Origin: Patescibacteria group bacterium
GTDB lineage: Bacteria; Patescibacteriota; Minisyncoccia; Minisyncoccales; Staskawiczbacteraceae
Direction of reading: 5' to 3'
Assembly (NCBI GenBank): GCA_018895235.1
Contig: JAHIOM010000014.1
Span: 5,203-69,202 of the forward strand
DNA length: 64,000 nucleotides
Below, one piece after another: positions 32,829 through 63,925 of the stretch. Position 1 is the first letter of the stretch. Each line of letters opens with the position of its first letter. Under the pieces are notes generated by a model, which saw nothing but the letters and a program-made list of their open reading frames with translations, had not been told where the DNA came from and did no database searches. The translations under genes were made by a program, and so were the position numbers.

Positions 32829-32858
32829 CAAAAAACACGATTAAACTCGTGTTTTTTG
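32829..32858. terminator. Bidirectional terminator
   Basis: AAAAAA CACGA TTAAAC TCGTG TTTTTT. Confidence 0.8.
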
Positions 32859-32864
32859 TTTTCA

Positions 32865-32946
32865 GCGCGGGTAGTGAACAATGCCAGAACTGCCATAAAG
32901 TGTAATCAGGAACATATTTACATACCAGACCTAAAACCCAATACCA
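32865..32946 (-). repeat. GCGCGGG-element, type C copy
   Basis: Plus strand: GCGCGGGTAGTGAACAATGCCAGAAC...GAACATATTTACATACCAGACCTAAAACCC. Begins immediately after the Nudix stop codon and ends at the terminator. Confidence 0.6.
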
Positions 32947-33483
32947 TTATTTTACCTTAACCAAAGGAATTGCTAACTTGTGTTTACTAATATAAAAATT
33001 GAGCGTCCTCATAAATCCTATGGTATATTTTTCTGGAATTTTTCCCATTTCTTCTGCTATATCATTAAGACTCATAGGAATTATTTTTTTAACCTCATCT
33101 TCGGCGATAACTATTTGTTTTATATCCTTGTCTGTTAATTTAACTTCGTAAAGCCCAAAATAGTGGTCAATCTTTAATTTTCTATTGGGCACTATTTCAT
33201 CTCCATAGAAGACACCAACTCTTTTAAGCTCTTTAACAATTCCCAATTCTTCTTTTGATTCTCTCATCGCGGCTTCATTATAAGACTCTCCCTGCTTAAT
33301 ATGGCCGCCAACTGAATGGTCAAGCAAATCATCTTTTTTTCTAAGTTGAACTAATAATTGATTGTCTGGATTAAATACAAAAATTGCTGCAACTCGGTGG
33401 ATATATCCATTCTCGTGTGCTTCGGCCTTATTGGTTGTTCCTATAATTTTGTCATTTATATCAACTTTATCTATTAGTTCCAT
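32947..33483 (-). CDS. Nudix hydrolase
   Basis: Nudix box GGHIKQGESYNEAAMRESKEELGI. Confidence 0.85.
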   Translation of the reverse strand: MELIDKVDINDKIIGTTNKAEAHENGYIHRVAAIFVFNPDNQLLVQLRKKDDLLDHSVGGHIKQGESYNEAAMRESKEELGIVKELKRVGVFYGDEIVPNRKLKIDHYFGLYEVKLTDKDIKQIVIAEDEVKKIIPMSLNDIAEEMGKIPEKYTIGFMRTLNFYISKHKLAIPLVKVK

Positions 33484-33516
33484 AAATTTAATTAATTTTA
33501 ATTAATCAAGCATGTC

Positions 33517-33645
33517 AAAAAACCACCCCAATTAAAAGGTGGTTTCTGAAAATGCGCGGGCAGTGGGACGCAGTTCGAACTTGGTTTTAGGAGAATTTCC
33601 CCGTGGTAGAACCGATCATTGTTTTGAAATAAAAATTCCTTCATA
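33517..33645 (-). repeat. Conserved terminator module plus GCGCGGG-element, type A copy
   Basis: AAAAAACCACCCCAATTAAAAGGTGGTTTC, then GCGCGGGCAGTGGGACGCAGTTCGAACTTGGTTTTAGGAGAATTTCCCCGTGGTAGAACCGATCATTGTTTTGAAATAAAAA. Confidence 0.7.
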
Positions 33646-33664
33646 TTTTACCTAGTGAAAAATT

Positions 33665-34924
33665 TTACTCGCAGCTTTTTCCGGCGGTATATCCGGTGCT
33701 CCAACACATTTGTAAATTGAAGCCACCAGTTTTGCCATCAACATCAATAATCTCACCTGCAAAAAATAAGTTATCGATTATTTTAGATTTCATCGTGTTG
33801 TGGTCTATCTCTTTTAAAGATACTCCTCCTCTTGTAACTATGGCTTGGTCAAAACCCAAAATATCTTCTGCTGTAACTTCAATATTTTTTAAAATTTTTA
33901 CTATTGTTGCCCTTTTAATTTTCGAAATATTATTGGCTATTTCAGTTTTATCTATGGTCGCAATATCTAATAGAACTTCTGCCAATCTTTCGGGCACAAA
34001 AATCGATAATATATTTTTAGCTGTTTTGTTTGGATATTTCCTTAAAATATCTTCAAGCTCCTTTAAAAGCTCTTCTTGATCCAGTAAAGGAAAAAGATCG
34101 ATACATATCTTTATTTCTCCCTTTTCTAATAAATCTCCCACTTTACCACTGATATTTAAAACAGCAGGCCCACTCATACCAAAATGAGTGAACAAAATTT
34201 CTCCTTCTTCTTGAAGCTGTTTTTTCCTATTTTGAAACACGGTTATCTTAATATCTTTTAAACTTATTCCCTGTAAATTCTTGACCCATCCCTCTTTTAT
34301 TATTATCGGAGACAAAGCAGGTCTTGGTTTCACAATGGTGTGTCCCATTTTTTCAGCTAATTTATAGCCGAAACCATCGGAACCAATCAAAGGATAAGAC
34401 TTTCCTCCGGTGCAAAGGACATACTTTTTTGCCTTGATTTCTTTGTCCTTCAAAATTATCTTGATTATTTTTTTATCTTTACAACTAACACCCACAACTT
34501 CGGAAGCGAAAAACATTTTTATTTTTTTATCTGACAAATAGTCGGTTAACGCTTCCAAAACTTCTTCTGCATCGTCGCTTCTTGGGAAAACTCTTTTGTC
34601 TTTTTCGGTTTTAGTTTTTACCTCTAATCCCTCAAAAAAATCAATCACTTCCTTCGGTCCAAAAACAGAGAAAGCGTGGAAAAGGAACCCTCCATTATTA
34701 TAATTTTTTACCAATTCCTTTAAATTAAATTCTGAATTGGTTAAGTTACATCTTCCGTTCCCCGTTAAGAGTAATTTTTTACCAAGCGCAGAATTTTTTT
34801 CTATTAAAACAACACTCAATCCTTGACGCGCTGCTGCACAAGCTGCCATTATTCCAGCAGGACCAGCCCCGATAACAGCAACATCAAAGTCGTATTTTTT
34901 AGTATCTTTTTTTTGCATAGCCAA
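33665..34924 (-). CDS. FAD-dependent oxidoreductase, HI0933/BaiN-like
   Basis: DVAVIGAGPAGIMAA dinucleotide fold and GRCNLTN. C-terminal GGFNLQ...STGY. Confidence 0.8.
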   Translation of the reverse strand: MAMQKKDTKKYDFDVAVIGAGPAGIMAACAAARQGLSVVLIEKNSALGKKLLLTGNGRCNLTNSEFNLKELVKNYNNGGFLFHAFSVFGPKEVIDFFEGLEVKTKTEKDKRVFPRSDDAEEVLEALTDYLSDKKIKMFFASEVVGVSCKDKKIIKIILKDKEIKAKKYVLCTGGKSYPLIGSDGFGYKLAEKMGHTIVKPRPALSPIIIKEGWVKNLQGISLKDIKITVFQNRKKQLQEEGEILFTHFGMSGPAVLNISGKVGDLLEKGEIKICIDLFPLLDQEELLKELEDILRKYPNKTAKNILSIFVPERLAEVLLDIATIDKTEIANNISKIKRATIVKILKNIEVTAEDILGFDQAIVTRGGVSLKEIDHNTMKSKIIDNLFFAGEIIDVDGKTGGFNLQMCWSTGYTAGKSCE

Positions 34925-36197
34925 AACGACCCGATGACCCGCCTGCGCGGGCAGGTCTATTTCTATGTGAAGAATAATTACTTCTACTAGGATTATTAAA
35001 ATTATTAGACGGCTGATTTAAATTAGGAGGAAAATCGGGTAATTTTGAAATAGGTAAATAAAGCCTTGTTAATCTTTCGATTTCCCTGACCTTAGATCCC
35101 TGGTCTGGCAAACAAAAAGAAATAGCTTTTCCTGCCATGCCGGCTCTACCGGTTCTTCCAATACGATGGACATAATCTTCTGGATTTTCAGGAAGATCAA
35201 AGTTGATAACCAATTCAATACCCTTTACGTCTATACCGCGCGAAGCGATGTCGGTTGCCACAAGCACCCTATATTTTCCGAGTTTGAATCCCTCCAGCGC
35301 TTCTTTCCTCTGGCCCAGTGATCTATTTGAATGTATTTCTGCCGCGGAAATTCCGATATTGCGCAACGTATTACAAATTTTTCTGGCATTATGTTTAATT
35401 CTTAAAAAGATTAAAACGCTTCCTTTGTATTCTTGAAGCAATTTTCCTAATAATGGAAATTTTTGGTCTTTTTTGACAACAAATAATTCGTGCTCAACAT
35501 TTTCAGCAGTAGTTCCAGTCCTATCTATTTCTACTCTGACAGGAAGCTTCATATGGTTACTAGCAATTTTTACAATGCCGTCTGGCATTGTTGCTGAAAA
35601 CAGCATCGTTTGTCTGTTTTTGGGAACCACTTGCAGTATTTTGTTTATCTGCGGAGCAAAACCCATATCAAACATTCTGTCGGCTTCATCTAAAACTAAA
35701 ATTGTAACATCACGCAAGTTTAAAGTTCTTTGTTGGATATGATCATTAATTCTTCCCGGAGTGCCGATAATAACATGGGGATTATAAGAAATTTCTCTTA
35801 TTTGCGCCCGCATGGGAGATCCGCCGATTAACACTGCTGTTTTTATACCAAAATCTCTGCCTATTTTTTGTATAGATTCATTTATCTGCAAAGCTAGCTC
35901 GCGAGTTGGCAATATAATTAATCCTTTTCTTTTTCCGTCTTTTAAAATCTGCTGAACCAAGGGAATACCAAAAGCTAAAGTTTTGCCCGTTCCTGTTTGA
36001 GCTATACCAATAATATCCTTGCCTTCGACGGCTACAGGAATCGCTTTATGCTGTATCGAGGTTGGAGTGTTAAAACCTAATCTTGAAATTACATCCAGAA
36101 GTTTTGGAGCTATGCCAAGACCGCCAAAAGTCATTTCTGTCTCATTTGATAAATGTTTGTTTACTTGCTTCTGTATCATAAAAAAATATGTAGCCAA
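34899..36197 (-). CDS. DEAD-box ATP-dependent RNA helicase
   Basis: AQTGTGKT, PTRELA, DEAD (VLDEADRM), SAT and HRIGRTGRAG. The track start is a TTG; the first ATG is at 36179. Confidence 0.9.
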   Translation of the reverse strand: MATYFFMIQKQVNKHLSNETEMTFGGLGIAPKLLDVISRLGFNTPTSIQHKAIPVAVEGKDIIGIAQTGTGKTLAFGIPLVQQILKDGKRKGLIILPTRELALQINESIQKIGRDFGIKTAVLIGGSPMRAQIREISYNPHVIIGTPGRINDHIQQRTLNLRDVTILVLDEADRMFDMGFAPQINKILQVVPKNRQTMLFSATMPDGIVKIASNHMKLPVRVEIDRTGTTAENVEHELFVVKKDQKFPLLGKLLQEYKGSVLIFLRIKHNARKICNTLRNIGISAAEIHSNRSLGQRKEALEGFKLGKYRVLVATDIASRGIDVKGIELVINFDLPENPEDYVHRIGRTGRAGMAGKAISFCLPDQGSKVREIERLTRLYLPISKLPDFPPNLNQPSNNFNNPSRSNYSSHRNRPARAGGSSGRFGYAKKRY

Positions 36198-37732: not shown

Positions 37733-37775
37733 AATGAATATCTTACTCTATTCTCAGACAAATATCCATCCCACT

Positions 37776-37900
37776 AAAAAAACCACCCCGATTAAAAGGT
37801 GGCTTCCGGGAAAATGCGCGGCATCGTGTACAACGTTAGAACCAGAATACAGAAAAATCAGGAATTTATTTATATCCCGAACTTAAATCTACAAACCGAT
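37776..37900 (-). repeat. Conserved terminator module plus GCGCGG-element, type C copy
   Basis: AAAAAAACCACCCCGATTAAAAGGTGGCTTC, then GCGCGGCATCGTGTACAACGTTAGAACCAGAATAC...GGAATTTATTTATATCCCGAACTTAAATC. Confidence 0.65.
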
Positions 37901-37910: not shown

Positions 37911-38210
37911 TTATTTACAAAACGTTACCCTTAAATCACGCCCGAGCGCCCCTGCTATTTTTTCGAGAATATCTATTGAAAAATTCTGCTGACCCGATTC
38001 CATTCTTGCTATATTACTTTGTTTGGTCCCTATCTTTTTTGCTAATTGCGCTTGAGAGATTTTTTTCTTTTTTCTTAATTTCAAAATCTGATAAGCAATT
38101 TCTAATTGTTTACCGTATTCGTCATAGTATTTTTTGAACTCAGGATTCTTCAGCTGTCTTTTCAAATAAACCTTGAAGTCTTGTGCTTTTTGTATTTTTT
38201 TATTATCCAT
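37911..38210 (-). CDS. XRE-family HTH antitoxin (HigA-like)
   Basis: ISQAQLAKKIGTKQSNIARMESGQ helix-turn-helix. Directly downstream of the toxin gene. Confidence 0.8.
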   Translation of the reverse strand: MDNKKIQKAQDFKVYLKRQLKNPEFKKYYDEYGKQLEIAYQILKLRKKKKISQAQLAKKIGTKQSNIARMESGQQNFSIDILEKIAGALGRDLRVTFCK

Positions 38211-38273
38211 AATTATAAGTGAGGAAGAAATGAAAATAAATTTTCATTTCGATCGAACGAGTAATTATATAAA

Positions 38274-38651
38274 CTAGTTTCTATAGATTTTAGGGTTACT
38301 TAATACGTCTTTATAATTTTGTTCTGCTTTTTTAATTTCAACCAACGGCGTTTTAGCTGTTTTCTTTAAAAATGCGTGAAGCAAAATTATATTTTTCCCG
38401 ACGAAAGTAAAATAAAATATTCTGTGTTTTTTTGAAGAAAAATCGACTCTCAATTCTCGAATTTTACCCTTAATATGTTTTGAATATGGTTCGTCTAAAA
38501 CTCCTTTGTTTGTTCTCAAAAATTCTATATATTTAAAAACCTTAGCTTTCTCTTTAATCTCTAAATTATCAATATATTCTAAAACAGGGCTTTTATCGTT
38601 CTTCGATTCTTTATAAAATTTTACTTCATACTCTGTATTATTATATATCAT
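38274..38651 (-). CDS. RelE/HigB-superfamily toxin (phage Gp49-like)
   Basis: VKFYKESKNDKSPVLEYID...IRELRVDFSSKKHRIFYFTFVGKNIILLHAFLKKT pattern. Toxin-first gene order. Confidence 0.75.
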   Translation of the reverse strand: MIYNNTEYEVKFYKESKNDKSPVLEYIDNLEIKEKAKVFKYIEFLRTNKGVLDEPYSKHIKGKIRELRVDFSSKKHRIFYFTFVGKNIILLHAFLKKTAKTPLVEIKKAEQNYKDVLSNPKIYRN

Positions 38652-38724: not shown

Positions 38725-38825
38725 CCGAGAATTACCTCGGGAATTTTGCGCGGGCAGTGAGACGCAGTTCGAACTTGGTTTTGGGTGAATTTCCCCGTAG
38801 AACCGGTAATTGTTTTGAAATAAAA
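38725..38825 (-). repeat. Terminator hairpin plus GCGCGGG-element, type A copy
   Basis: CCGAG AATTAC CTCGG (T-run on the minus strand), then GCGCGGGCAGTGAGACGCAGTTCGAACTTGGTTTTGGGTGAATTTCCCCGTAGAACCGGTAATTGTTTTGAAATAAAAA. Terminators flank it on both sides. Confidence 0.7.
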
Positions 38826-38861
38826 AAGAACCCTGCTCACATTAATACAACACAGGACTCT
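38822..38861 (-). terminator. Intrinsic terminator after the SPFH gene
   Basis: Minus strand: AGAGTCCTG(17 nt)CAGGGTTCT followed by TTTTTT. Two stem positions pair only as G-U on the minus-strand RNA and would be A-C mismatches on the plus strand. Confidence 0.7.
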
Positions 38862-39606: not shown

Positions 39607-39731
39607 CAGAATAATTGAAACAATTATAAAGATTGCAATATAGAGAAAACTTGTAAAAACTATATTTTTAAATTTAATTATTAATATTTACCTTTAATTT
39701 TATCTAATCAGTTTTACATACTTTTGTCAAC

Positions 39732-39955
39732 AAAAAACCACCTCAATTAAAGGGTGGCTTCCTGAAAAAGCGCGGGTGGCGGGACGATTTTCGAACTTTT
39801 GAGTGGGAAAAAGTATTCCCTTCCCCAGAACTTGTAGTTAGCCAAATAAGGCAGTTATTGGCGATTTCGGCGGATGGACAACGTTAGAACCAAAATACAA
39901 CAACAAAGTGAACATATTTATATGCCAGACCTAAGTCCAGCACCTACCCAATACT
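39732..39955 (-). repeat. Conserved terminator module plus tandem type B and type C elements
   Basis: AAAAAACCACCTCAATTAAAGGGTGGCTTC. Then GCGCGGGTGGCGGGACGATTTTCGAACTTTTGAGTGGGAAAAAGTATTCCC...GCCAAATAAGGCAGTTATTGGC. Then CGGCGGATGGACAACGTTAGAACC...GAACATATTTATATGCCAGACCTAAGTCC. Confidence 0.7.
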
Positions 39956-41398: not shown

Positions 41399-41630
41399 AT
41401 CTATATCAACTTCCAGTTGATTTTTTGTGTTAATCTTACATTCAAAATTATACCATAATTTTATAAAAAAACCACTGATGAAAAAGTTGACACCCGGCTT
41501 TGCTTTAAGATATAACAGAGATATAACAAAAAAAAGAAATCAGATTAAAAAAACAAAACCATCCCGTAAATAACGGGGTTTTTAAAAATTGCAGCTCTCG
41601 CTGCGTAATTATTTATCAAAGTATTTTTTT

Positions 41631-42941
41631 ATGCAAAACAATAATCAAAAACCTAAAATAGCTATTTTCCATTACTCCGGACCGCCGAACACGTCAGGCG
41701 TTGACATTATTGTCCGCGACCAAGCACGATTATTTCGACTTCACGGTTACAAAGTAGAAATTGTTGCAGGACTCATTAAACAATTCCGCAAAGACATCCC
41801 GGTACACATAATCCAAAAAATAAGCCCCAGGCATCCGCTCGTCCTTTCAACGCTTGAAGAACTAGAAAAAGGAATAGTTTCTTCCGATTTTAAAAAATTG
41901 GAGCGAAGTCTTTTTTACTCAATCAAAAAATATCTAATACGGAACAATATTCAAATTTGCATTTTGCATAATCTCTTCACGCGTTCCTATAACCTTGCTC
42001 TTACTTCGGCGCTAGCCCGCCTTATTAAGGATTTGCCCCACATTCGATTTATTGCCTGGGTGCATGATGTTGTGTTTTACAACGAGCCGGATACACTCCT
42101 GAAACACGAGTTAGGCAATCAATATCCTTGGAATCTACTAGTGAAACCAGTTCCCGAACTTACTTATGTATGTGTATCTAAATTCCTGAAGCATAATATT
42201 CTGACGGCATTCAATAGTTTGAAACACGCAGAAATTACCGTAATTCCCAATGGCCGCGATATTCAAAAATTTCTAGGACTTAGCCCAACGATGAGAACAT
42301 TGTATGAAGACATTCATGCCCTTGGATGCGATTTGATCGCTTGCCTCCCGGTACGCGCTATCCCAAGAAAAAATTTAGAGCTTGCGCTTCGAATTGCACG
42401 TGCTATCTTAAACAAAGGGGTAAAATTTAAACTGCTGCTCACCGCCAATATTGACTATAAGCGCGAAAAAAACCTTAACTATTATAACCATCTTAAAGAT
42501 CTCGTCCAAGAACTTAAACTCAAAAAGCACGTTTTCTTTTTAGAAGAGTATTTTGAACGTTTTGCAACCGATAAAAAACCTGCACCCGCGATTCCCATCC
42601 CAGAACTTTTCCTTATTTCAGACTTTCTTCTTTTTACAAGCCGCGTAGAAGGTTTCGGTTTACCACTCATAGAGGCAGGGCTTATGCGCTGCCCTATCTT
42701 CGCCGCAGACATCCCACCGTTGCGTGAAATTGGCACTACTAATATTAACTATTTCACGCGTGATGCAAACGCGGAGCAGGTTGCGGACTATATCCTTGAA
42801 AATCTTAAAAAGATGCCTCAGGCTTATTTTTACCGAAAAATCATAAAAAAATTCTCCCTCCATATGATATTCAAAAGGCGGATTCTACCACTTATTGAAA
42901 GCATTAAAAGTAAGGAATCTTCTATGTTAAAACAACAATAA
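41631..42941 (+). CDS. Glycosyltransferase, GT4-like (GT-B fold)
   Basis: EGFGLPLIEAG motif. The track start at 41589 is a TTG; the first ATG (MQNNNQKPKIAIFHY) is at 41631. Confidence 0.75.
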   Translation: MQNNNQKPKIAIFHYSGPPNTSGVDIIVRDQARLFRLHGYKVEIVAGLIKQFRKDIPVHIIQKISPRHPLVLSTLEELEKGIVSSDFKKLERSLFYSIKKYLIRNNIQICILHNLFTRSYNLALTSALARLIKDLPHIRFIAWVHDVVFYNEPDTLLKHELGNQYPWNLLVKPVPELTYVCVSKFLKHNILTAFNSLKHAEITVIPNGRDIQKFLGLSPTMRTLYEDIHALGCDLIACLPVRAIPRKNLELALRIARAILNKGVKFKLLLTANIDYKREKNLNYYNHLKDLVQELKLKKHVFFLEEYFERFATDKKPAPAIPIPELFLISDFLLFTSRVEGFGLPLIEAGLMRCPIFAADIPPLREIGTTNINYFTRDANAEQVADYILENLKKMPQAYFYRKIIKKFSLHMIFKRRILPLIESIKSKESSMLKQQ

Positions 42942-42947
42942 TTTACC

Positions 42948-44069
42948 ATGCGCCAATCACAACACTCAAACTATCGATTTTTTATTGCCGCAATGGGTCC
43001 TGGAGAAATTGGCCAGGGGATGGCATTCGCCGGATACGCTCTCGGTCGCGGAGATTTTGTCGTCTTCGCAATACCCCGCGCCGAGTACCTTCCATTAGTA
43101 CAATTGCAAAACCCTCGATTTTCATCTCTTATCACAGAAAATTCAGTTGCCCTCAAAGAAGCTCTTTGCTCCAAAAAGATTGACGCATTGATTTTATGCA
43201 ATTCAAAGATTTTTACCAGAAACGACAATTTTCCCAAATACCCGCCCGAACCAAAACTACCAAGCCTTTCCATAGATTCCAACTGGCTCTTTGGTCCCTC
43301 AAGTCCCTACCTTTCTAACCCGTGGGTTGACCGCTACTGTCTAAACTTGCCTGAGCCAATATTCCAAATGGGACTTAAAAAGAATGGCGGACACTACGTA
43401 ATCCCTAAAAAAATTCTTGAAAAAATAAGCGTGGTGGGACTCATTCCCTCTTACCGCCCCTTATCTGTCCAAGAAAAAAACAAGATACGAGCAAAGTACG
43501 GCATTCATAAAAATGAAAAGTTAATATTTCTCTACACCAGTATGGGATCTTTGGAAAAGCCGAGAGTATTTCTTAAGGCCTATGCGGTGGTAAAAAAACT
43601 TAGAGCCAAGGGGAAAAAAGTAAAAGTAATTTATTTTGGAGATCCGCCGTCCGCTTTTTTAAACGCTAAAGACCGTGACTGGTTTCTTGCGCGTCCCCGC
43701 ACAAATACCGAACATTTTTCAAAAGTGCTTGCGAGTTCCGACTTAGTGTTCCAGCATCAGGGACTTGCCACGATGGAACAAGCCATTGGAGCACAGGTTC
43801 CTGTTATCGCCAACGTAAGAGACCGCAAAGATGAAAAAAATCCCACGCGCCATATGCACGCTTGGGAAGTAGGACCATTCGCAAAATATGGGGCTTGCGC
43901 TATGTTCTTCTCCCGCAATTCTATTAGCACTGTCGCAAATTGCTCAGAGGGTCTTTTATTCAATAAAAATCGGCGCGAAGCCATGCGCCAAAAACAACAC
44001 GCTCTCTATGGAAACGGAGAAAAAAAAGTCTATAATGAAGCTATTAAATTATTAAAAACTAAGTCTTAA
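42948..44069 (+). CDS. Hypothetical protein, possibly glycosyltransferase-like
   Basis: ORF sandwiched between two GT genes with 6-nt and 1-nt gaps. N-terminal GPGEIGQGMAFAGYAL glycine-rich loop. No firm family call. Confidence 0.4.
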   Translation: MRQSQHSNYRFFIAAMGPGEIGQGMAFAGYALGRGDFVVFAIPRAEYLPLVQLQNPRFSSLITENSVALKEALCSKKIDALILCNSKIFTRNDNFPKYPPEPKLPSLSIDSNWLFGPSSPYLSNPWVDRYCLNLPEPIFQMGLKKNGGHYVIPKKILEKISVVGLIPSYRPLSVQEKNKIRAKYGIHKNEKLIFLYTSMGSLEKPRVFLKAYAVVKKLRAKGKKVKVIYFGDPPSAFLNAKDRDWFLARPRTNTEHFSKVLASSDLVFQHQGLATMEQAIGAQVPVIANVRDRKDEKNPTRHMHAWEVGPFAKYGACAMFFSRNSISTVANCSEGLLFNKNRREAMRQKQHALYGNGEKKVYNEAIKLLKTKS

Positions 44070-44070
44070 T

Positions 44071-45180
44071 ATGAGAAAATTACGCATTGGACAAATTGCG
44101 CCGCTCAACGTACCCATCCCTCCAAAAAAGTACGGCGGAACCGAACGCATAATTAACGCTCTTTGCCGCGGGCTTTCTAATCGCGGCCATAAGATCTTTC
44201 TTTTTGCCGCGGCAGACGCAAAAACTGGAGGAAAAATAATCCCCATTATACCAAAAAGCCTTTGGACAAACAAAATCAAAGAGGCCACGCCTTACTATTC
44301 CTATGAAATGAATGTTATTTTACAAAAATCGCCCGGCCTTAAATTAGATATTCTTCACGACCACCTTGGGCCATTTAGTTTAGCCCTGTATGGGGGCCTT
44401 AACATTCCTATTTTGCACACTCTGCATGTTCCTATTAATAAAGATCGCGCTTGGGCCTACCGAAAATTAAATTCTAAATTAATCAGCATCTCTAATAATC
44501 AACGTAAAAACGCTCCTCGGCTTAATTATGTTGCCACTATTTACAACGGCACTGACACAAATCTGTTCCAATTCAATCCTAATCCTAAGGATTATTTACT
44601 GTTTTTGGGCGAGCTGGTGGAACGCAAAGGAGTTAGGGAAGCAATTTTGGCCGCAAAAAAACTTAAATTAAAACTAGTAATTGCGGGCCGTGTCCCACTG
44701 CAAACACAGAGGAAAGATTACTCTTTTTTCCAAAAATACGTAAAACCAAAATTAAATCGCGGCCGCATAGAATACGCAGGTGAAGTCGCCAAAGAAAAAG
44801 TTTCTAAACTTTACAGAGATGCGAAAGCCACGCTTTTCCCCATACGCTGGGAAGAACCATTTGGTCTTGTAATGATTGAATCAATGTCCTGCGGAACGCC
44901 AATTATTGCTTTTGCTAAGGGGTCTGTCCCGGAAATAATCAAAGATGGAGAAACCGGATTTATTGTTAATTTTTCTTTATCCGACATACGGGGAAACTGG
45001 ATTATTAAGAAAACGGGGATAGAAGGACTTTGCAAAGCGGTGGATAGAATTTACGCAATGCCTGAAAAAGAATACCGACAAATGAGAGAAAACTGCCGGA
45101 AACGCGCGGAAAAGAATTTCGCCATTAAGAGAATGGTAGATGAGTACGAAAAAGTGTACTACAAAATATTGCGAAAATGA
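44071..45180 (+). CDS. Glycosyltransferase family 4
   Basis: N-terminal YGGTERIINAL and C-terminal EPFGLVMIESMSCGTPIIA...PEIIKDGETGF. Confidence 0.85.
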   Translation: MRKLRIGQIAPLNVPIPPKKYGGTERIINALCRGLSNRGHKIFLFAAADAKTGGKIIPIIPKSLWTNKIKEATPYYSYEMNVILQKSPGLKLDILHDHLGPFSLALYGGLNIPILHTLHVPINKDRAWAYRKLNSKLISISNNQRKNAPRLNYVATIYNGTDTNLFQFNPNPKDYLLFLGELVERKGVREAILAAKKLKLKLVIAGRVPLQTQRKDYSFFQKYVKPKLNRGRIEYAGEVAKEKVSKLYRDAKATLFPIRWEEPFGLVMIESMSCGTPIIAFAKGSVPEIIKDGETGFIVNFSLSDIRGNWIIKKTGIEGLCKAVDRIYAMPEKEYRQMRENCRKRAEKNFAIKRMVDEYEKVYYKILRK

Positions 45181-45434: not shown

Positions 45435-45775
45435 AATGCTGTAAGCGCGGGCGACGGGAGGAGTTGCCCGAAGGCATTGCCTCCTCGGTCGCCTAAGGCG
45501 ACTACCCTATCGGCTCGTCGCAATTCGGTGGAGAAACCATCCCGTCTGGGAGCAAAAAGTCCCCCGAAATTGAGGGACTTTTTGCTCTAGCGCGTCTTTA
45601 CGACGAAGTTAGAACCTATTTTATTGAAAATCTTTGACGATATTCTGCCCGCCGCCTGCGGCGGCGGGCAGAAACAGACCGAAAACGAATCGGCTCGCGG
45701 GCAAAAAATGGAGGGGTTTTAGGAGTTTGAGTCCCCGGAAATTTTTTGCCCGCCCGCTTTTTGAAATTTAATTCG
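45435..45775 (-). ncRNA. Long (about 340 nt), hairpin-rich member of the GCGCGGG-element family; class unknown
   Basis: Starts GCGCGGGCGACGGG. Contains GTCGCC TAA GGCGAC, a perfect 14-bp GAGCAAAAAGTCCC/GGGACTTTTTGCTC stem, the family motif GAAGTTAGAACC, CTGCCCGCCGC CTGC GCGGCGGGCAG, and a 13-bp GCGGGCAAAAAAT/ATTTTTTGCCCGC stem. Orientation is inferred from the other copies. Confidence 0.45.
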
Positions 45776-45803: not shown

Positions 45804-45851
45804 GATAATTTTAAGTTTTTCTTTTGTGTGAAATTTTATCCACTTCGATAT

Positions 45852-46193
45852 TTATCCAAAACTCCTAGTTCCAACTAATACGCCCAGAAGCCAATATAAG
45901 AAAAAACCGACCCATATAAAAATAAATATTTTCAGTAAACACTCCATTGTCTTTTTAATCGGAGGTTTCTCTAAAAAATTATTGAGAAATTTTATTTTTT
46001 CGCCTAATTTCAGCAAAAGCCCCAATAATAATGAGCCACCAATTGATATTCCAAGTCCAACAGAAAACACCCTATCTTCTAATAGTGTAGAAGAGAACCC
46101 TCCGATTACTGTATACACAAAGAAAAGAAAACCCAAGACAAATACTATTATAAAAATTAAATAGATGATTAACTCTATAAGTTTTTCTTTCAT
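45852..46193 (-). CDS. Small membrane protein (113 aa)
   Basis: MKEKLIELIIYLIFIIVFVLGFLFF; 3-4 hydrophobic helices. Confidence 0.6.
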   Translation of the reverse strand: MKEKLIELIIYLIFIIVFVLGFLFFVYTVIGGFSSTLLEDRVFSVGLGISIGGSLLLGLLLKLGEKIKFLNNFLEKPPIKKTMECLLKIFIFIWVGFFLYWLLGVLVGTRSFG

Positions 46194-46197
46194 AATT

Positions 46198-46503
46198 TTA
46201 TTTGCCGAAGTTTGATGGTTTGAAAAATTCCCATATTTTTAATAGAATTTGTTTCGAAAAAAGAAATATTTTTTGTATAACTTCTTGCCAAAGGGTTAAA
46301 GTTCTTGGTCTAAAAGAAGAACAATCTCTGAATTCCTTAATTTGTTCATCGGTAAATTTTCTCGAAGTATCTGCTTCGCAATAATATCTTCCTCGATGAT
46401 TGGTTGTGGGTATCCCTTGCGGATTTATAAAAGATACTACCCCTTCGCCCTCTTTCAGATATTTACACTGGCCACATGTTGTTTTATTTTCCATATTATT
46501 CAA
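46198..46503 (-). CDS. Hypothetical Cys-containing protein (101 aa)
   Basis: ORF with CGQC...C...C. 4-nt gap to the next gene. Confidence 0.5.
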   Translation of the reverse strand: MNNMENKTTCGQCKYLKEGEGVVSFINPQGIPTTNHRGRYYCEADTSRKFTDEQIKEFRDCSSFRPRTLTLWQEVIQKIFLFSKQILLKIWEFFKPSNFGK

Positions 46504-46545
46504 GTTTTGTCCAGTTTTCTTTTTTGGGTTTATATTATAAAATTC

Positions 46546-49773: not shown

Positions 49774-49784
49774 AGATTTATTTA

Positions 49785-50264: not shown

Positions 50265-50366
50265 AGATTTATTTTACCTTATTTTACCCCACTGTGCTAT
50301 TCACTGTTTCTAAATTAAAAATTACCTAGCAATGGACGGTTTTAGTTAAACCCTAGGCTATATTTT

Positions 50367-51368: not shown

Positions 51369-51372
51369 AGGT

Positions 51373-51810
51373 TTATTTATCCTCATCTGCTGATTTCATC
51401 TTTTTGAGAATCCTCGCTTTTGCTTTAACGACTTCGTCACTTGTGATATTTATATTTATTGTTTGGGGCAAAGCTCCTTCGGGCTCGATTCTTCTCTTTA
51501 CTTTGTTGTATTCTCTGATAGCGGCAACCTTAGAAGATAAATCTGCTTTCTGTGTAATAACAAATCCCAATTCTCTATCAACGACTTCATTGTTTATGTA
51601 AATATCTAACAACTCACGGATGCGGGCTGTAACGTAATCTTTTGTCAATAATCGATACGCATGCTGCCTCGCCGCCCTATGGGTTGTCTTCCCCCCAAAC
51701 GCTTTAATGTAAGTTTGCGTTCCATTACTAAAGCAATCACGGTCTGTGACAAAGATGCGGCAAAACACTTCTTCTTTCGCAGTAAGTTGTCCGTTAATTC
51801 TTTTCCCCAT
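51373..51810 (-). CDS. Phage terminase small subunit-like protein
   Basis: LTAKEEVFCRIFV...TQTYIKAFG...AARQHAYRLLTKDYVTARIRELL matches the Terminase_2-type HTH pattern. Confidence 0.7.
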   Translation of the reverse strand: MGKRINGQLTAKEEVFCRIFVTDRDCFSNGTQTYIKAFGGKTTHRAARQHAYRLLTKDYVTARIRELLDIYINNEVVDRELGFVITQKADLSSKVAAIREYNKVKRRIEPEGALPQTININITSDEVVKAKARILKKMKSADEDK

Positions 51811-51875
51811 GTTGTTTTTTTGTTAATACTTTTTTTGTATTAAAACATGGGGAATAATATTTTTACAATATTTTA

Positions 51876-52340
51876 TTATTTTCTAAGTATTTTTGCTTCT
51901 TTGCGTCTTTTTTTCTCACGACTTCCCGACAATTTAATGCACTCGGTTTCAACCTCAAACTTCTTAAGACACGCACCAAGCCAACTTTTATCAGATACAA
52001 ATGGCTTCTGCGCATCTTTGTTTGAAAAAATTAAAACTTTTTTATACTTCCCTCCCTGCATCTTCTCTATAAAAATAAGCTTGAGGGCATCCTTCATCAC
52101 TTTCCATTTCTGTCCGGCTTTTGGACGCTTACAGCCCGACCAAGCTTCACATAAGTAAGGTGGATTCTCTGAATACCCATCAATTTGCACAGAAATTTGA
52201 TTTCCTTCAATATTAAATCGAAGGCTTTTACTTACCAAAGTAACCCCCCTGTGTTTAGAAAACCTTGAAATCATTTCTGGTTCAGCCAACATGGCCTCTG
52301 TCGCAGTCCCCAATTTTGGTTTTGATTGTTTTAATTTCAT
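51876..52340 (-). CDS. Hypothetical protein with PD-(D/E)xK-like motif
   Basis: VQIDGYSENPPYLCEAWSGCKRPKAGQKWKVMKDALKL (D...EAW..K...Q..K) with a basic tail. Start set at MKLKQSKPK. Confidence 0.4.
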   Translation of the reverse strand: MKLKQSKPKLGTATEAMLAEPEMISRFSKHRGVTLVSKSLRFNIEGNQISVQIDGYSENPPYLCEAWSGCKRPKAGQKWKVMKDALKLIFIEKMQGGKYKKVLIFSNKDAQKPFVSDKSWLGACLKKFEVETECIKLSGSREKKRRKEAKILRK

Positions 52341-52344
52341 ATAC

Positions 52345-52500
52345 AAAAAGCCCACCACGGGTAGCGGCCGAAGCCACTCATACCGGTTTCCCGATATGGC
52401 AGAACATGCGACCCCATGATGGGTTCTTTATGCATGTTCTAACTTTTTATGCCATGTCTTGCAAAAGCAAGGGTTAGGCATCAATATTAAGTTGTTAAGT
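52345..52500 (-). promoter_or_regulatory. GC-rich structured region upstream of 51876..52340
   Basis: Minus strand: CTTGC TTTT GCAAG; 9-bp AGAACATGC(22 nt)GCATGTTCT; GGTA-GTGGC TTCG GCCGC-TACC (UUCG tetraloop); then GGGCTTTTTGTAT just before the ATG. Confidence 0.4.
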
Positions 52501-54231: not shown

Positions 54232-54415
54232 TATTCTAATATTATTATATAATTTTTATTAAAATTACGTTTGAAGTGCATTTTAGTAGTAGTAATGGGG
54301 ACGGTTAATTGTCTAATAAAAAATTCTACTATTAAAAAACTGCCGAAAATAAAATTATTTATTTGATTGTTTTCTCCGTATTTTTAGTTTAATATTTTAA
54401 TTTATTTACTCTATC

Positions 54416-54578
54416 AAAAAATCACCCAAATTAAAAGGTGGTTTTTGATAACTCTTGATACGACTTGGCGCGGGTGGCGGGACGATTTTCGAACTTTTGA
54501 GTGGGAGAAGGCGTTCCCTCAACCAGAAGTGGCTGTTAAAAAAATTAGACAATTATTAACGCTAATTTAATCTACTCT
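54416..54578 (-). repeat. Conserved terminator module plus GCGCGGG-element, type B copy
   Basis: AAAAAATCACCCAAATTAAAAGGTGGTTTTT, spacer, then GCGCGGGTGGCGGGACGATTTTCGAACTTTTGAGTGGGAGAAGGCGTTCCC...GACAATTATTAACGCTAATTTAATCTACTCT. The 5' end of the element overlaps the Nudix stop codon. Confidence 0.7.
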
Positions 54579-55034
54579 ATTCCTTAAAACTTTTTCTAAA
54601 AGACGCCTAAAATTAGGAAAAAGTTTTATATTATCTAATTCATCTATGCCAAAAAACTGAATATCTTTTAATTCTCCTTCATTGAGCTTGATTTTTCTAT
54701 TATTACCATAAATACTACACAAGTAAACGATGTCATCATGATAATGATTGCCGACTAACTCGCATAAAATCACGTAAGGATTGTATAAAACAGAAACATC
54801 TGCATTGGCATCAGATAAACTATTATCTTTTTCTCCCATTATTTCAACATCTAATCCTGTTTCTTCTTTTACCTCTCTTATTACCGTTTGTTCTGGCGTT
54901 TCATTTTTTTCTATATGTCCGCCAGGATAAAGCCAAACGCCGAGTTTTTTATGATGCACCAATAAAACTTTACCGTTATCTATTATCAATGCAGACGCTG
55001 TAAAATGTTTCTCTAACTCATTATTTTTCGGCAT
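54567..55034 (-). CDS. Nudix hydrolase
   Basis: Nudix box GGHIEKNETPEQTVIREVKEETGL. Confidence 0.85.
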   Translation of the reverse strand: MPKNNELEKHFTASALIIDNGKVLLVHHKKLGVWLYPGGHIEKNETPEQTVIREVKEETGLDVEIMGEKDNSLSDANADVSVLYNPYVILCELVGNHYHDDIVYLCSIYGNNRKIKLNEGELKDIQFFGIDELDNIKLFPNFRRLLEKVLRNRVD

Positions 55035-55098: not shown

Positions 55099-55335
55099 TT
55101 AATACGACAACTTTATTCCAAGTTTATCCGCTAATTGATGCAACCACTTCTCGTGCCTATCAATTTTCTGCGAAAGCATTAACATTTCCTGGAAATATGC
55201 GTCTGCTTTTTCCGCATATTTATCTACGGCAGTTTGTAACTGAACGAAACCTTTTTCCACTTTATCAAATCTTTTATCAATACCAACAAACTTTTCATCT
55301 AAATATGTAATTAACTCTGAAAAATCTTCTTTCAT
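55099..55335 (-). CDS. Small helical protein (78 aa), paralog of 63545..63787
   Basis: The C-terminal 45 aa are near-identical between the two copies (AVDKYAEKADAYFQEMLMLSQKIDRHEKWLH..ADKLGIKL). Confidence 0.65.
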   Translation of the reverse strand: MKEDFSELITYLDEKFVGIDKRFDKVEKGFVQLQTAVDKYAEKADAYFQEMLMLSQKIDRHEKWLHQLADKLGIKLSY

Positions 55336-55377: not shown

Positions 55378-55490
55378 GCGCGGGTGGCGGGACGATTTTC
55401 GAACTTTTGAGTGGGAGAAAGCGTTCCCCTATCCGAAGATTGCTGTGCAGGAAATAAAGCAATTATTGACACTGATTTAATTACTCTACC
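55378..55490 (-). repeat. GCGCGGG-element, type B copy
   Basis: GCGCGGGTGGCGGGACGATTTTCGAACTTTTGAGTGGGAGAAAGCGTTCCCCTATCC...GCAATTATTGACACTGATTTAATTACTCTACCCT. Abuts the promoter of the 78-aa gene. Confidence 0.7.
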
Positions 55491-55521
55491 CTGTGGCTCA
55501 TTATAGTTTTGAAACTCTTTT

Positions 55522-55797: not shown

Positions 55798-55834
55798 AAA
55801 AATAAAGAGTTAATTTTATATTTGTTATTATATC

Positions 55835-56030
55835 AAAAAACCACTCCGATTAAAAGGTGGCTCTAGAAAATGGCTTGCACTGAGCTTGTCGAAGTGCGCG
55901 GGTGGCTGGACGATTCTGAAAGTCCTGAGCAAAGTCGAAGGATTCGAACTTTTGAGTGGGAGAAGGCGTTCCCCTATCCAGAGCTTACTATTAGAGAAAT
56001 AAACCAATTACTGGCTTTAATTTAGATTTA
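55835..56030 (-). repeat. Conserved terminator module plus type B element with a 27-nt internal insertion
   Basis: AAAAAACCACTCCGATTAAAAGGTGGCTCT...GCGCGGGTGGCTGGACGATT[CTGAAAGTCCTGAGCAAAGTCGAAGGA]TTCGAACTTTTGAGTGGGAGAAGGCGTTCCCC... The direct repeat CTGAGCnnnGTCGAAG occurs twice. Confidence 0.7.
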
Positions 56031-56065
56031 CCCTACCCTACTACTCATTTTATTGTCTTATAATT

Positions 56066-57432: not shown

Positions 57433-57580
57433 GCGCGGGTGGCGGGACGATTCCTGTCCCGTAGTGGTCGCCTAGGGCGACCTACTACTGGGGTTCGAAC
57501 TTTTGAGTGGGAGAAAGCGTTCCCCTATCTTGAGTTGATTGTTAGCCAAGTGAGGCAATTATTAGCGTTAATTTAGTTTA
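57433..57580 (-). repeat. Type B element with a 41-nt hairpin insertion
   Basis: GCGCGGGTGGCGGGACGATT[CCTGTCCCGTAGTGGTCGCCTAGGGCGACCTACTACTGGGG]TTCGAACTTTTGAGTGGGAGAAAGCGTTCCCC...GGCAATTATTAGCGTTAATTTAG. The insertion is at exactly the same point as in the 55896 copy. Confidence 0.7.
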
Positions 57581-57603
57581 TCATATCACCATTATTTTTG
57601 GAT

Positions 57604-58740: not shown

Positions 58741-58769
58741 AGAATATACTAATTTAATCACTTTGTCAA
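58741..58769 (-). promoter_or_regulatory. Putative promoter of the TPR/membrane operon
   Basis: Minus strand: TTGACA, 17 nt, TATTCT. Located immediately after the terminator module. Confidence 0.5.
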
Positions 58770-58772
58770 ACC

Positions 58773-58935
58773 AAAAACCACCTCAGTTAGAAGTGGCTCT
58801 TGATATCATTTGATACGACTTGATGGCGCGGGTGGCGGGACGATTTTCGAACTTTTGAGTGGGAAAAAGCATTCCCTGCTCCCGACCTAACTATTAAGCA
58901 AATTAACCAATTATTGGCACTAGTTTAGGTTTGGC
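58773..58935 (-). repeat. Terminator module (variant) plus GCGCGGG-element, type B copy
   Basis: AAAAACCACCTCAGTTAGAAGTGGCTCT, spacer, then GCGCGGGTGGCGGGACGATTTTCGAACTTTTGAGTGGGAAAAAGCATTCCC...ACCAATTATTGGCACTAGTTTAGG. Confidence 0.7.
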
Positions 58936-59062
58936 TCGTGGTGATTTTATGGTCTAGTTTGTATTGCGATGAACCATTGCAACAGATTTATCCTGTTTAT
59001 TTGAGCCATCCAATAGAGAATTTCCCGGTTTAGTCGGCTATCATCAAAAAAATTATTTTTCT

Positions 59063-62899: not shown

Positions 62900-63490
62900 T
62901 TTTACCAATGACCTCCTCCCCGCCCTCCCTGGGGGTCGGAGCGGGGTTTCCTTTCGTGTCATGAGAGTTCTCCAGTTAAATCAATCCCTCGGTCGAAGTT
63001 ATTCTGTCTTTCGATGTATTTTCTAATGTTCGCCTCATTGAGTCCAACAGTAGATACAAAATATCCAGTGCCCCAGATGCCTTTATCGTCGTACATTTTT
63101 GAAACAAAGTCGAACCTTTCGCGAAGATAAATACTGGTTTGGGATTTTACCACAGAGACAACGAAGGATATTGAGTATTTTGGTGGTATTTCCATCAAAA
63201 GATGGACATGGTCATCGCCAGTATTTATCTTCGCGAAATACCAATCTGGGTATTTCTTTTGTATTTGGTAGAGTCTTTTTACCAGTTCCTCTCGGACATA
63301 ATGTTTCAAAAATTTACGACGGTAAAGAGTGCCCCAAACCAAGTGGTATTCTGTCTGGTATACGCTGTGATTTAACTGTCGAACCCTCATGCTAACAGCA
63401 TACCACACCGCGGTGTGGTATGCCCATTCATCCCCGCCCTCGGCGGACTCTGAAGCGTTTCAACGCCTCAGGCGGGGTTTCCTGTAAGGA
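62900..63490 (-). mobile_element. IS200/IS605-family element (tnpA only)
   Basis: The Y1 transposase gene is flanked by imperfect palindromes. Both ends share TCCCCGCCCTC...GCGGGGTTTCCT. The right end also has ATACCACAC CGCG GTGTGGTAT. Confidence 0.7.
62959..63408 (-). CDS. tnpA: IS200-type Y1 (HUH) transposase
   Basis: YHLVWGTLYRRKFL, DDHVHLLMEIPPKYS (HUH) and GTGYFVSTVG (catalytic Tyr region). Confidence 0.85.
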   Translation of the reverse strand: MWYAVSMRVRQLNHSVYQTEYHLVWGTLYRRKFLKHYVREELVKRLYQIQKKYPDWYFAKINTGDDHVHLLMEIPPKYSISFVVSVVKSQTSIYLRERFDFVSKMYDDKGIWGTGYFVSTVGLNEANIRKYIERQNNFDRGIDLTGELS

Positions 63491-63493
63491 AAT

Positions 63494-63523
63494 AAAAAAC
63501 CACCTCAATTAAAAGGCGGCTTT
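63494..63523 (-). terminator. Conserved terminator module (degenerate) after the 80-aa gene
   Basis: AAAAAACCACCTCAATTAAAAGGCGGCTTT. Directly abuts the IS200 right end. Confidence 0.5.
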
Positions 63524-63544
63524 AACAAAATCTATTATATAAAA

Positions 63545-63787
63545 TTAATATGGAAGTTTTATTCCTAATTTGTCAGCAACTAAATGCAACCATTTTTCGT
63601 GCCTATCAATTTTCTGCGACAACATTAACATTTCTTGAAAATATGCGTCAGCTTTTTCGGCGTACTTATCAACAGCGGTCATTAAATTCTGGATATCAAC
63701 TTTGTCTGCCTTGGTTTCTAATACTTTCTCAATTTTCGTAAAACGTTCGTCTAAATATGTAATTAACTCTGAAGAATCTTCTGCCAT
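63545..63787 (-). CDS. Small helical protein (80 aa), paralog of 55099..55335
   Basis: See 55099..55335. Confidence 0.65.
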   Translation of the reverse strand: MAEDSSELITYLDERFTKIEKVLETKADKVDIQNLMTAVDKYAEKADAYFQEMLMLSQKIDRHEKWLHLVADKLGIKLPY

Positions 63788-63795
63788 ATATTTTT

Positions 63796-63823
63796 ATTAT
63801 ATACCCACTAAAAATAGTGTCAA
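63796..63823 (-). promoter_or_regulatory. Consensus sigma-70 promoter; probably leaderless mRNA
   Basis: Minus strand: TTGACA, 16 nt, TATAAT, 8 nt, ATG. Same geometry as 55344..55371. Confidence 0.75.
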
Positions 63824-63829
63824 ATAAAT

Positions 63830-63925
63830 GCGCGGGCAGTGGGACGCAGTTCGAACTTGGTTCTGGGAGAACTTCCCGGCGATAGAGTCGATCCGGATTG
63901 TATTGGAAACTTAAGTAAATATCTC
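63830..63925 (-). repeat. GCGCGGG-element, type A copy
   Basis: GCGCGGGCAGTGGGACGCAGTTCGAACTTGGTTCTGGGAGAACTTCCCGGCGATAGAGTCGATCCGG... Confidence 0.7.

Follow-up and report, generated by a model that had tools for sequence, protein, structure and literature searches.

One example of islands at the ends of transfer RNA (tRNA) and transfer-messenger RNA (tmRNA) genes is the accretion of integrative elements with cis-mobilizable elements. In integrons the cassettes have no promoter of their own, and a common promoter lies at IntI/attI. In Dehalococcoides, multiple tandem ssrA genomic islands (ssrA-GIs) are found downstream of the tmRNA gene, with 20-bp repeats of the 3′ end of this gene as their borders and a further conserved motif beside each repeat; some of these islands have no integration module and have been read as cis-mobilizable (PMC3146451). 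Here we describe an array of intergenic repeats within a 64,000-nucleotide (nt) stretch (the window) of contig JAHIOM010000014.1 from a Patescibacteria group bacterium. Elements are named by type and plus-strand core start (e.g. A33554), and the gene strand is the minus strand. The best reading of the locus is an array of ~33.6 kb of small integrated cassettes immediately downstream of a single tRNA-Asp(GTC) gene. We consider it probable that the repeats are joints which arose by recombination at the 3′ end of this gene, making them attachment-site-like (att-like) borders within a tandem array of small acquired blocks. Related loci are labelled L001-L035; L029 and L023 come from the same sample, and L023 is identical to the window.

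The heptamer GCGCGGG is present 14 times in the window compared to 1.8 expected, a number reached in 0 of 100 shuffles. Eleven of these matches are cores of the family (32865, 33554, 38748, 39770, 45445, 54468, 55378, 55896, 57433, 58826 and 63830) while the remaining three (19302, 34945 and 43075, minus strand) fall within open reading frames (ORFs) and have no family context. The copy at 37816 has the core GCGCGGC on the plus strand, that is GCCGCGC on the gene strand, and a second unit at ~39866 is degenerate. The repeat finder picks up families D1, D2, D8 and D10, and an nhmmer profile of the family run with filters off matches the minus strand only, between 32865 and 63892. The repeat family of the original prediction is therefore real, with 13 copies, all on the minus strand at 32.8-63.9 kb. 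Its claim that the first 32 kb contain no copies also stands, as the unfiltered profile is empty there (1-32 kb), that part lying outside the array. No family copies were present in 17 kb of the relative L026 or in L035.

In the layout that we propose a joint would read, 5′ to 3′ on the gene strand, as an upstream arm, a core corresponding to the tRNA-Asp end and an independently chosen downstream module. The upstream arm is 60-150 nt in length and belongs to family A, B, C or E. Full-length units start with ATTyCAAAAC(A/T)AT just past the T-run of the upstream gene's terminator, and the gene-strand 3′ end of all copies is sharp (...CCCGCGC); the 5′ unit end (..ATTyCAAAAC) is not an inverted repeat of the 3′ end (CCCGCGC). 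Types A and B share the skeleton GGGAA..TTCTCCCA.....AAGTTCGAA...CGTC...C..CCCGCGC, and type C reads GGTTCTAAC-GTCGTCCACGAC-CCCGCGC with spacing equal to that of types A and B. B55896 and B57433 are type B copies with a hairpin inserted 3′ of GTTCGAA. The three predicted types and their common skeleton were borne out, although the GC-rich copy 45445 had to be set apart as a fourth type, E. The predicted intergenic placement was likewise upheld, but overlap with coding sequence is not limited to a stop codon since the 5′ module of B54468 covers ~20 nt of a NUDIX ORF.

The sequence 3′ of the core is variable at once and is drawn from a small set of downstream modules. The downstream module would start exactly after the core, usually as a short spacer followed by the native tRNA-Asp hairpin terminator and sometimes as a promoter. 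T1 comprises a short spacer and a hairpin terminator with a conserved loop (CCACC-TTTTAATTGR-GGTGG), of which there are 7 copies compared to 0.01 expected, all on the minus strand at 33.5-63.5 kb. T2 consists of CA(TC)AAGTCGTATCAA.. and then T1, T3 of ACTTCGACAAGCTCAGTGCAAGC and then T1, and T4 of AAAATTCCCGAG..CTCGG with a T-run, while T5 consists of ATTTGACAC..TATAAT together with a DUF16-like gene of 78-82 amino acids (aa). T6-T9 are further module types found in relatives and 3′ of E45445. The terminator predicted 3′ of most units is thus confirmed, and with its conserved loop it forms a repeat family of its own. At 38.8, 56.0 and 57.6 kb the upstream genes can be seen to have separate terminators, as had been described. 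The features of the array, with the evidence for each, are as follows.

32479..32864, no strand assigned: distal flank, comprising a bidirectional terminator (~32815-32860) and a convergent SWIB-domain gene (32554-32811, plus strand); L031 homology.
32865..32945, minus strand: type C, last junction of the array; the core ends at 32865 and tail-flank homology to L031 runs from 32861.
33554..33634, minus strand: type A junction; repeat finder, alignments and nhmmer profile.
33514..33545, minus strand: T1 conserved-loop terminator hairpin 3′ of A33554; repeat family D4.
37816..37900, minus strand: type C junction with core GCCGCGC, then T1 hairpin (37774-37805); nhmmer profile.
38748..38828, minus strand: type A junction, then T4 terminator (38725-38740); nhmmer profile.
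39770..39862, minus strand: type B junction, then T1 hairpin (39729-39760); repeat finder and nhmmer profile.
39863..39950, minus strand: type C unit with degenerate core, abutting B39770, an 'empty' interval between two joints; D10 and nhmmer profile.
45445..45560, minus strand: type E junction with GC-rich hairpins and the end TCCCGTCGCCCGCGCTT, then T9; sequence comparison with tRNA-Asp.
54468..54590, minus strand: type B junction, core with CCA, then T2 spacer and T1 hairpin (54413-54444); repeat finder and nhmmer.
55378..55510, minus strand: type B junction, core with CCA, T5 directly 3′ (TTGACA-16-TATAAT and a 78-aa DUF16-like gene); nhmmer.
55896..56050, minus strand: type B with inserted hairpin, then T3 spacer and T1 hairpin (55832-55863); nhmmer.
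57433..57600, minus strand: type B with inserted GC-rich hairpin that includes a T-arm-like stem (CGGGAC/GTCCCG); nhmmer.
58826..58945, minus strand: type B junction, core with CCA, then T2 spacer and hairpin (58769-58800); repeat finder and nhmmer.
63830..63905, minus strand: type A junction, T5 directly 3′ (promoter and an 80-aa DUF16-like gene); nhmmer; the array runs on past the window to tRNA-Asp.

By sequence comparison the core corresponds to a copied tRNA-Asp 3′ end. Type A ends (TCCCACTGCCCGCGC / TCCCACTGCCCGCGCA) match the end of the L013 tRNA-Asp (TCCCGCTGCCCGCGC / GGGTTCAAATCCCGCTGCCCGCGCCA) at 14 of 15 positions, and type B ends (TCCCGCCACCCGCGCCA / CCCGCCACCCGCGC(CA)) match the L031 tRNA-Asp end (TCCCGTCACCCGCGCCA) at 16 of 17 positions; the tRNA-Asp genes of L031 and L033 end in CCCGTCACCCGCGC(CA). 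The end of E45445 (CTCCCGTCGCCCGCGC|TT) is identical over 17 nt, including the trailer, to the organism's own tRNA-Asp (ATCCCGTCGCCCGCGC|TT). Core and tRNA-Asp have in common the 3′ strand of the T-stem, the 3′ strand of the acceptor, the discriminator G73 and C74, and CCA is present in three of the type B copies. The core layout would run from a T-loop-like GTTCNAA to ...CGTCC....CCCGC-G-C(CA); the upstream GTTCNAA is the counterpart of the T-loop, set off by a 5-nt insertion. CCCGCGC is common to all types. Most cores are not exact copies of the resident tRNA and combine the invariant CCCGCGC with lineage-specific variants.

The 5′ acceptor strand is absent from every unit, and ARAGORN and the Rfam tRNA model called only tRNA-Val (524-596) in the window and no unit. 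A tRNA, split tRNA or tmRNA on either strand was rejected as there is neither a cloverleaf nor a 5′ acceptor strand. The poor fit to a whole tRNA recorded in the original prediction accordingly holds, although the identity of the last 15-27 nt with the tRNA-Asp 3′ end had been missed. A small ORF within the core was also considered and rejected (frames are not conserved and start codons are missing in most copies), as was a polar motif of the Chi or FtsK-orienting (KOPS) kind (copies occur only in intergenic regions and on the G-poor strand). Two kinds of tRNA-like sequence lie outside the units. Inverted fragments resembling tRNA 3′ ends (GACAGGyAAsGGGATTTGAAC), complementary to the T-arm of tRNA-Asp, occur 50-70 nt 3′ of tRNA-Asp genes as well as 3′ of some type C joints (L007 ~6180-6225 and ~750-780, L013 165-185 and L029 ~6950-7000), and 'D' modules which follow A and B cores in L012 and L013 end in a T-loop and acceptor-like sequence of another tRNA.

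A tRNA-Asp gene stands at the head of the array. In L013 and L015/L007 tRNA-Asp lies 0.9-2 kb upstream of a unit and is co-oriented with it, L013 being a metagenome contig that has a type B unit and begins with the tRNA-Asp gene, and from these loci we predicted a tRNA-Asp gene at the head of the array in the window. L029, a contig of the same organism as the window, was reached via LepA beside the L015 tRNA cluster, of which it encodes an 80%-identical homologue, and overlaps window positions 64000-63833 at 100% identity. The gene order at its head is MurJ, LepA, tRNA-Met, a GIY-YIG ORF, tRNA-Met, a LAGLIDADG ORF and tRNA-Asp with T1, followed by a nucleoside deoxyribosyltransferase, type C with T7, a DAO-like gene, type C with T1, a membrane ORF and A63830. 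The tRNA-Asp 3′ end falls 2,427 nt past the end of the window, on the same strand as every unit, with the two further type C joints in between. The T1 spacer and hairpin directly 3′ of this tRNA-Asp are those found 3′ of A33554, C37816 and B39770. Head-of-array tRNA-Asp genes are also present in L013, L015/L007, L031 and L033.

The flanks of the array are conserved while its content varies. At the tail, homology between the window and L031 starts at 32861, 4 nt past the last core, and window 32861-32479 is 85% identical at the DNA level to L031 20839-21220; the SWIB protein is 91% identical to that of L031 and 85% identical to that of L033. L031 has the same LepA-tRNA-Met-tRNA-Met-tRNA-Asp head and then only ~8.1 kb of different genes before the SWIB flank, including one diverged type B unit and one type C-like unit. 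The interval between the flanks is ~33.6 kb here compared to ~8.1 kb in L031 and 9.2 kb in L035, with different genes in each, and the content of L033 is different again. The LepA/tRNA side is syntenic in five genomes, and on the other side conservation of SWIB/terminator (or pheS) extends to L031 and L035. In L035 the native terminator of tRNA-Asp is likewise T1 although the acceptor stem differs (..TTGGGTCCG), and the 9.2 kb before pheS in this genome contain no units and no repeats of its own tRNA-Asp 3′ end.

The endonuclease-like ORFs of L029 (GIY-YIG, 5321-5587; LAGLIDADG, 5718-6332) are wedged among its tRNA-Met, tRNA-Met and tRNA-Asp genes, which are adjacent to each other without such ORFs in L015, L031 and L035. 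Another GIY-YIG ORF (L031 18184-18435) is the first gene 3′ of the type B unit of L031.

Upstream arms and downstream modules assort independently, with the switch of partner exactly at the core CCCGCGC. T1 follows A, B and C copies; T2 follows B54468, B58826, the B copy of L016 and a C copy (L012_4006); T4 follows A38748 and a C copy in L020; T5 follows A63830, B55378, an A copy (L020_2325) and a C-variant in L020; and T6 follows A in L012 and B in L013. Each type of downstream module seen 3′ of units is also found directly 3′ of tRNA-Asp in some genome. T1 occupies this position in L029 and L035, T9 in L031, T8 in L033 and T7 in L007/L015 and L013, with a T4-like terminator also 3′ of tRNA-Asp in L013; in the case of T9 the trailer of the L031 tRNA-Asp (TTTAGTATCTAGTGATGCyGAGAC) matches the sequence 3′ of E45445. 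Blocks recur as wholes. The Gp49 (HigB-like)/HTH_3 toxin-antitoxin pair (37911-38651, minus strand) makes up a whole block with an A joint on one side and a C joint on the other. It is 88% identical at the DNA level to a copy in L012 with unrelated neighbours, and the similarity starts where the A unit starts and stops with the final base of the C core. The 5′ region of the Band7 gene with its T1 hairpin is 92% identical to L020, where it is preceded by a DUF16-like gene and not by a B unit. Freely combining arms and modules, a switch at the core and blocks that recur in other contexts are what repeated insertion at the 3′ end of a tRNA gene predicts.

We propose that a donor molecule, circular or linear, with the order downstream module, genes, upstream arm and core would recombine with the 3′ end of tRNA-Asp or with an existing core. 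Such an insertion would regenerate the tRNA gene, supply it with a new terminator and displace the older blocks, and repeated rounds would give a co-oriented stack in which each joint is made up of the arm of block n, the core and the downstream module of block n-1. The two terminators present per joint would follow from this, as one belongs to the genes of the upstream block and the other to the module, where it serves to end tRNA-Asp. We infer that the recombination was site-specific and due to a recombinase that acts in trans and is not encoded in the array, and the blocks may be mobile at the present day.

A number of observations weigh against insertion at the tRNA end. No tyrosine or serine recombinase was found using Pfam, NCBIfam and PHROGs among ~90 ORFs of the window and the related loci, L029 included, the recombinase scans giving only the IS200 TnpA, a DDE transposase in L020 and the GIY-YIG and LAGLIDADG ORFs. 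No integrase is present near tRNA-Asp in L029, L015, L031, L033 or L035, and unannotated ORFs of 317 aa and 241 aa, considered as divergent recombinase candidates, have no significant match to solved structures. Inverted core-type binding sites flanking CCCGCGC are absent, and neither an excised circle nor an empty site was observed in the contig sequences. The blocks are very small (0.5-5 kb), and part of their cargo is housekeeping-like, namely a TrpRS/TyrRS-type (tryptophanyl-/tyrosyl-tRNA) synthetase and a DEAD-box helicase here, RsgA in L007 and BipA in L020. Pairing is maintained in the arm hairpins and is biased towards one strand, which would not be expected of an att site that is purely double-stranded. 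Conservation of the arms across distant genomes is far above what decaying scars should show, with 33 nt of type A 100% identical between the window, L001, L007, L012 and L020. The arms are therefore under some constraint, which implies that something, probably a protein acting on DNA, still reads them.

Several of these observations would also be accounted for by passive 'portable homology', in which one or a few ancient integrations were followed by natural transformation and homologous recombination at the conserved cores, arms and hairpins, swapping blocks in the manner of 'minimal mobile elements', with no need for a dedicated site-specific recombinase today. An integrase was found nowhere in the scanned loci, housekeeping-like genes are located inside the arrays, the arms and the hairpins alike have the length (60-150 nt) and the conservation needed of anchors for recombination, and shared blocks such as the toxin-antitoxin block carry both flanking elements whole, from A start to C end. 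However homologous recombination alone creates no copies of a tRNA 3′ end, and it explains neither why the switch falls exactly at CCCGCGC rather than anywhere within the arms nor why the modules are also found directly 3′ of tRNA-Asp in other genomes. We judge this explanation improbable.

The original prediction favoured a multi-copy small RNA gene. In its present form an RNA explanation holds that the units act as small RNAs of their own, or as modules of 3′ untranslated regions that mimic the tRNA-Asp 3′ end, with possible roles in binding or titrating a factor that recognises this end or in directing 3′ processing. Sequence conservation across genomes is very strong, the units are situated on the sense strand between a gene and a terminator, and they contain a T-loop-like GTTCGAA and acceptor-like ends, with a T-arm-like hairpin restored in B57433. 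The short hairpin of type C displays compensatory variants (GUCG/CGAC, AUCG/CGAU and GUUG/CAAC) with wobbles on the minus strand. The searches for RNA structure point however in the other direction. In Rfam the units had no match, either at the gathering threshold or at E<5; within the window a LOOT RNA and tRNA-Val alone were matched, in line with the unknown class given in the original prediction. Folding is no better than that of shuffled sequence on either strand (z of -1.5 to +1.6 in 11 of the 13 copies), and the only outliers, B57433 and E45445, are copies with GC-rich hairpins. The missing 5′ acceptor strand leaves no tRNA-like helix to form.

Nine type A copies from five genomes were compared for the helix pair GGTTCT/AGAACC enclosing GGGAG/TTCCC. 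Of the plus-strand cells 94.7% pair and 17 are G.U, compared to 77.9% and one G.U cell on the minus strand. A double change is seen in one pair only, as it is in 98-101 of 500 shuffles, and covariation is therefore not significant. The type A inverted repeat is maintained and favours the strand opposite the genes, so that the best-pairing strand is the antisense one. Compensatory hairpin changes, as had been claimed, can thus be seen in the type C short hairpin but not at a significant level in the type A helix. Covariation support for an RNA is absent, a result which the original prediction had itself named as one that would speak against an RNA. The wobble bias of the two hairpins is opposite, that of type A (e.g. 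33580-33615) lying on the plus strand and that of type C (e.g. 37822-37835) on the minus strand; no single-strand model explains both.

A consensus scan found no sigma-70 promoter within the units on either strand, and the '-10-like boxes' noted previously do not score as such promoters. The sequence TTGACA-16-TATAAT lies directly 3′ of core 55378, a similar promoter lies 3′ of 63830, and TTGACA is also found after T1 hairpins. Many units are behind the own terminator of the upstream gene, so that read-through into them would be low. A riboswitch or attenuator leader with T1 as its expression platform was rejected because the downstream genes are unrelated and T1 is the native terminator of tRNA-Asp. 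An RNA function also leaves unexplained the confinement of the units to an array headed by tRNA-Asp and the exact switch of partners. The description of the units as modular, co-oriented, intergenic and outside Rfam was accurate, while with ordinary folding, no significant covariation and no consensus promoter we consider it unlikely that they act as RNA.

A further explanation is that the units are non-autonomous single-strand transposable elements, similar to palindrome-associated transposable elements (PATEs) or to repetitive extragenic palindromes and bacterial interspersed mosaic elements (REP/BIME), or are ends of IS200/IS605 insertion sequences (IS). A Y1 transposase of the HUH class would insert such elements 3′ of a short target (..GCGC), in one orientation and without duplication. 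The array does contain an IS200/IS605 TnpA gene (62959-63408; Pfam 1.2e-28, NCBIfam equivalog 4e-32). The units have one orientation, one sharp end and no target duplications, their pairing is strand-biased (17 vs 1 G.T cells in the type A helix), and the type C hairpin lies 7-10 nt before the sharp end. The resident IS has however its own ends, which are unrelated to the units. These are the hairpins GGAAACCCCGC..GGCGGGG, present as direct copies at 63472-63482 and 62941-62951 and nowhere else. TnpA is classed as IS200 by its score (111 bits), and its score as a REP-associated transposase (28.5 bits) is below the cutoff of 80. The strand favoured in pairing (plus) is opposite to the IS top strand, and neither the 15-27 nt of tRNA-Asp identity nor the tRNA gene at the head or the confinement between the flanks is predicted. 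We hold transposition of this kind to be quite unlikely, and rejected the Y1 transposase as the mobiliser of the units as its ends do not match them. The IS200/IS605-type insertion itself (62900-63485, minus strand) is immediately preceded by TTAC, has a T1 hairpin upstream of it and seems to be an insertion in its own right. A viral origin of the units was also rejected, as patterns for types A/B, for type C and for the tRNA-Asp end were each without a match in IMG/VR.

We identified a number of further features within the array. The region 45850-52360 (minus strand) has a low GC content (28-30%) and contains ~14 small ORFs, nearly all of which have no Pfam or PHROGs matches, as well as a homologue of the small terminase subunit (51373-51810) and a trypsin-like protease (50367-51386). 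Six of the small ORFs share a near-identical start region (TTTTTTCTTTCAT on the plus strand, family D5). This region may be a phage satellite or prophage remnant whose downstream limit is the type E joint copying the resident tRNA-Asp end. A full-length LOOT RNA (52363-52480, minus strand; Rfam RF03000, 79.7 bits compared to a gathering threshold of 46.4) adjoins the run of unannotated small ORFs and the terminase homologue. Three glycosyltransferase-type genes (41589-45180, plus strand) with a GC content of 40-42% compared to ~35% form the sole plus-strand block in the array.

The DUF16-like coiled-coil paralogues of 78-80 aa (55099-55335 and 63545-63787, minus strand) are also present in L020, L024 and L026. 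Their TTGACA..TATAAT lies only ~8 nt before the ATG, so that the predicted mRNA would have almost no leader. Nearly all of the 127 homologues of the family come from Patescibacteria metagenomes, and members are often found directly 3′ of a core. In L024 the DUF16-like gene is preceded by ~250 nt of GC-rich, hairpin-rich intergenic sequence (9650-9900, plus strand), which resembles a structured RNA or a further composite joint.

Genomes of the candidate phyla radiation (CPR) are very small and little is known of how they gain and lose genes. Here a single tRNA gene is followed by small, self-contained blocks of genes stacked over about a quarter of a 128-kb contig, and the joints are conserved across several lineages of Patescibacteria. 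If the joints are still active, they would represent a dedicated gene-exchange site working without a resident integrase, and an accessory genome that could be found from sequence by scanning downstream of tRNA-Asp for cores ending in CCCGCGC. The analysis also removes a false candidate for a structured RNA. Repeats of this kind break metagenome assemblies, as many matching contigs end at or near a unit.

A search of the literature on CPR integrons or tRNA-linked islands in Patescibacteria found nothing relevant, and by their defining tests the array belongs to neither integrons, miniature inverted-repeat transposable elements (MITEs), REP systems with their REP-associated tyrosine transposases (RAYTs) nor structured RNA families. 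The label 'MITE-like' used in the original prediction was nearer in spirit, as the biology is that of a DNA-level repeat, but MITEs have terminal inverted repeats and target duplications, which units and flanks lack here, and the copies are not dispersed. With REP/BIME and the IS200/IS605 PATEs the array shares modular mosaic intergenic repeats, hairpins, one orientation, the absence of target duplication and a Y1 transposase nearby; unlike them, its copies are at one locus, its hairpins are unrelated to the resident IS ends and its core is derived from a tRNA.

The array has in common with integrons a large number of small, co-oriented gene units with a conserved site behind each, which forms hairpins in part and is sharply bounded on one side. 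Also in common are empty units, a cargo that includes toxin-antitoxin and NUDIX-type genes, and better pairing on the strand opposite the genes. It is therefore conceivable, though in our estimate rather unlikely, that the array is a working integron-like gene-capture platform of CPR bacteria, in which the tRNA-Asp 3′ end would correspond to attI and the arms to attC. Recognition of the A, B and C arms would then depend in part on hairpins formed in the single strand opposite the genes, and a recombinase encoded elsewhere, or a hijacked host enzyme, would insert and shuffle self-expressed mini-cassettes of 0.5-5 kb. If so, tiny genomes would possess a dedicated locus for rapid gene turnover. 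Unlike integrons, however, no IntI gene was found near tRNA-Asp in L029, L015, L031, L033 or L035, and the alignments of the array units contain no R″/L″-L′/R′ core sites (RYYYAAC...GTTRRRY). The only helix here (P2 plus P1) is internal, ~30 nt from the boundary, and does not span it, the units carry promoters and terminators of their own, and the anchor is a tRNA gene.

Insertion at the tRNA-Asp 3′ end, the reading that we prefer, brings the array nearest to the ssrA-GIs. Unlike those islands, which are 10-30 kb in length, the units here are 0.5-5 kb with at least 17 joints in ~33.6 kb, the array has no integration module at all that could be seen, and most cores are not exact copies of the resident tRNA. 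There are three to four arm families, partly 100% conserved across distant Patescibacteria and with maintained hairpins, and the host is a Patescibacteria genome. In both systems an intact RNA gene stands at the head of the array and the repeats, all downstream and co-oriented, copy the 3′ end of the gene with extra conserved sequence alongside; in both, variable content is found between conserved flanks and units without an integrase occur. The closest known kind of system is that of tandem islands at the 3′ end of a tRNA or tmRNA gene with direct repeats of this end as borders, of which the Dehalococcoides ssrA-GIs are an example.

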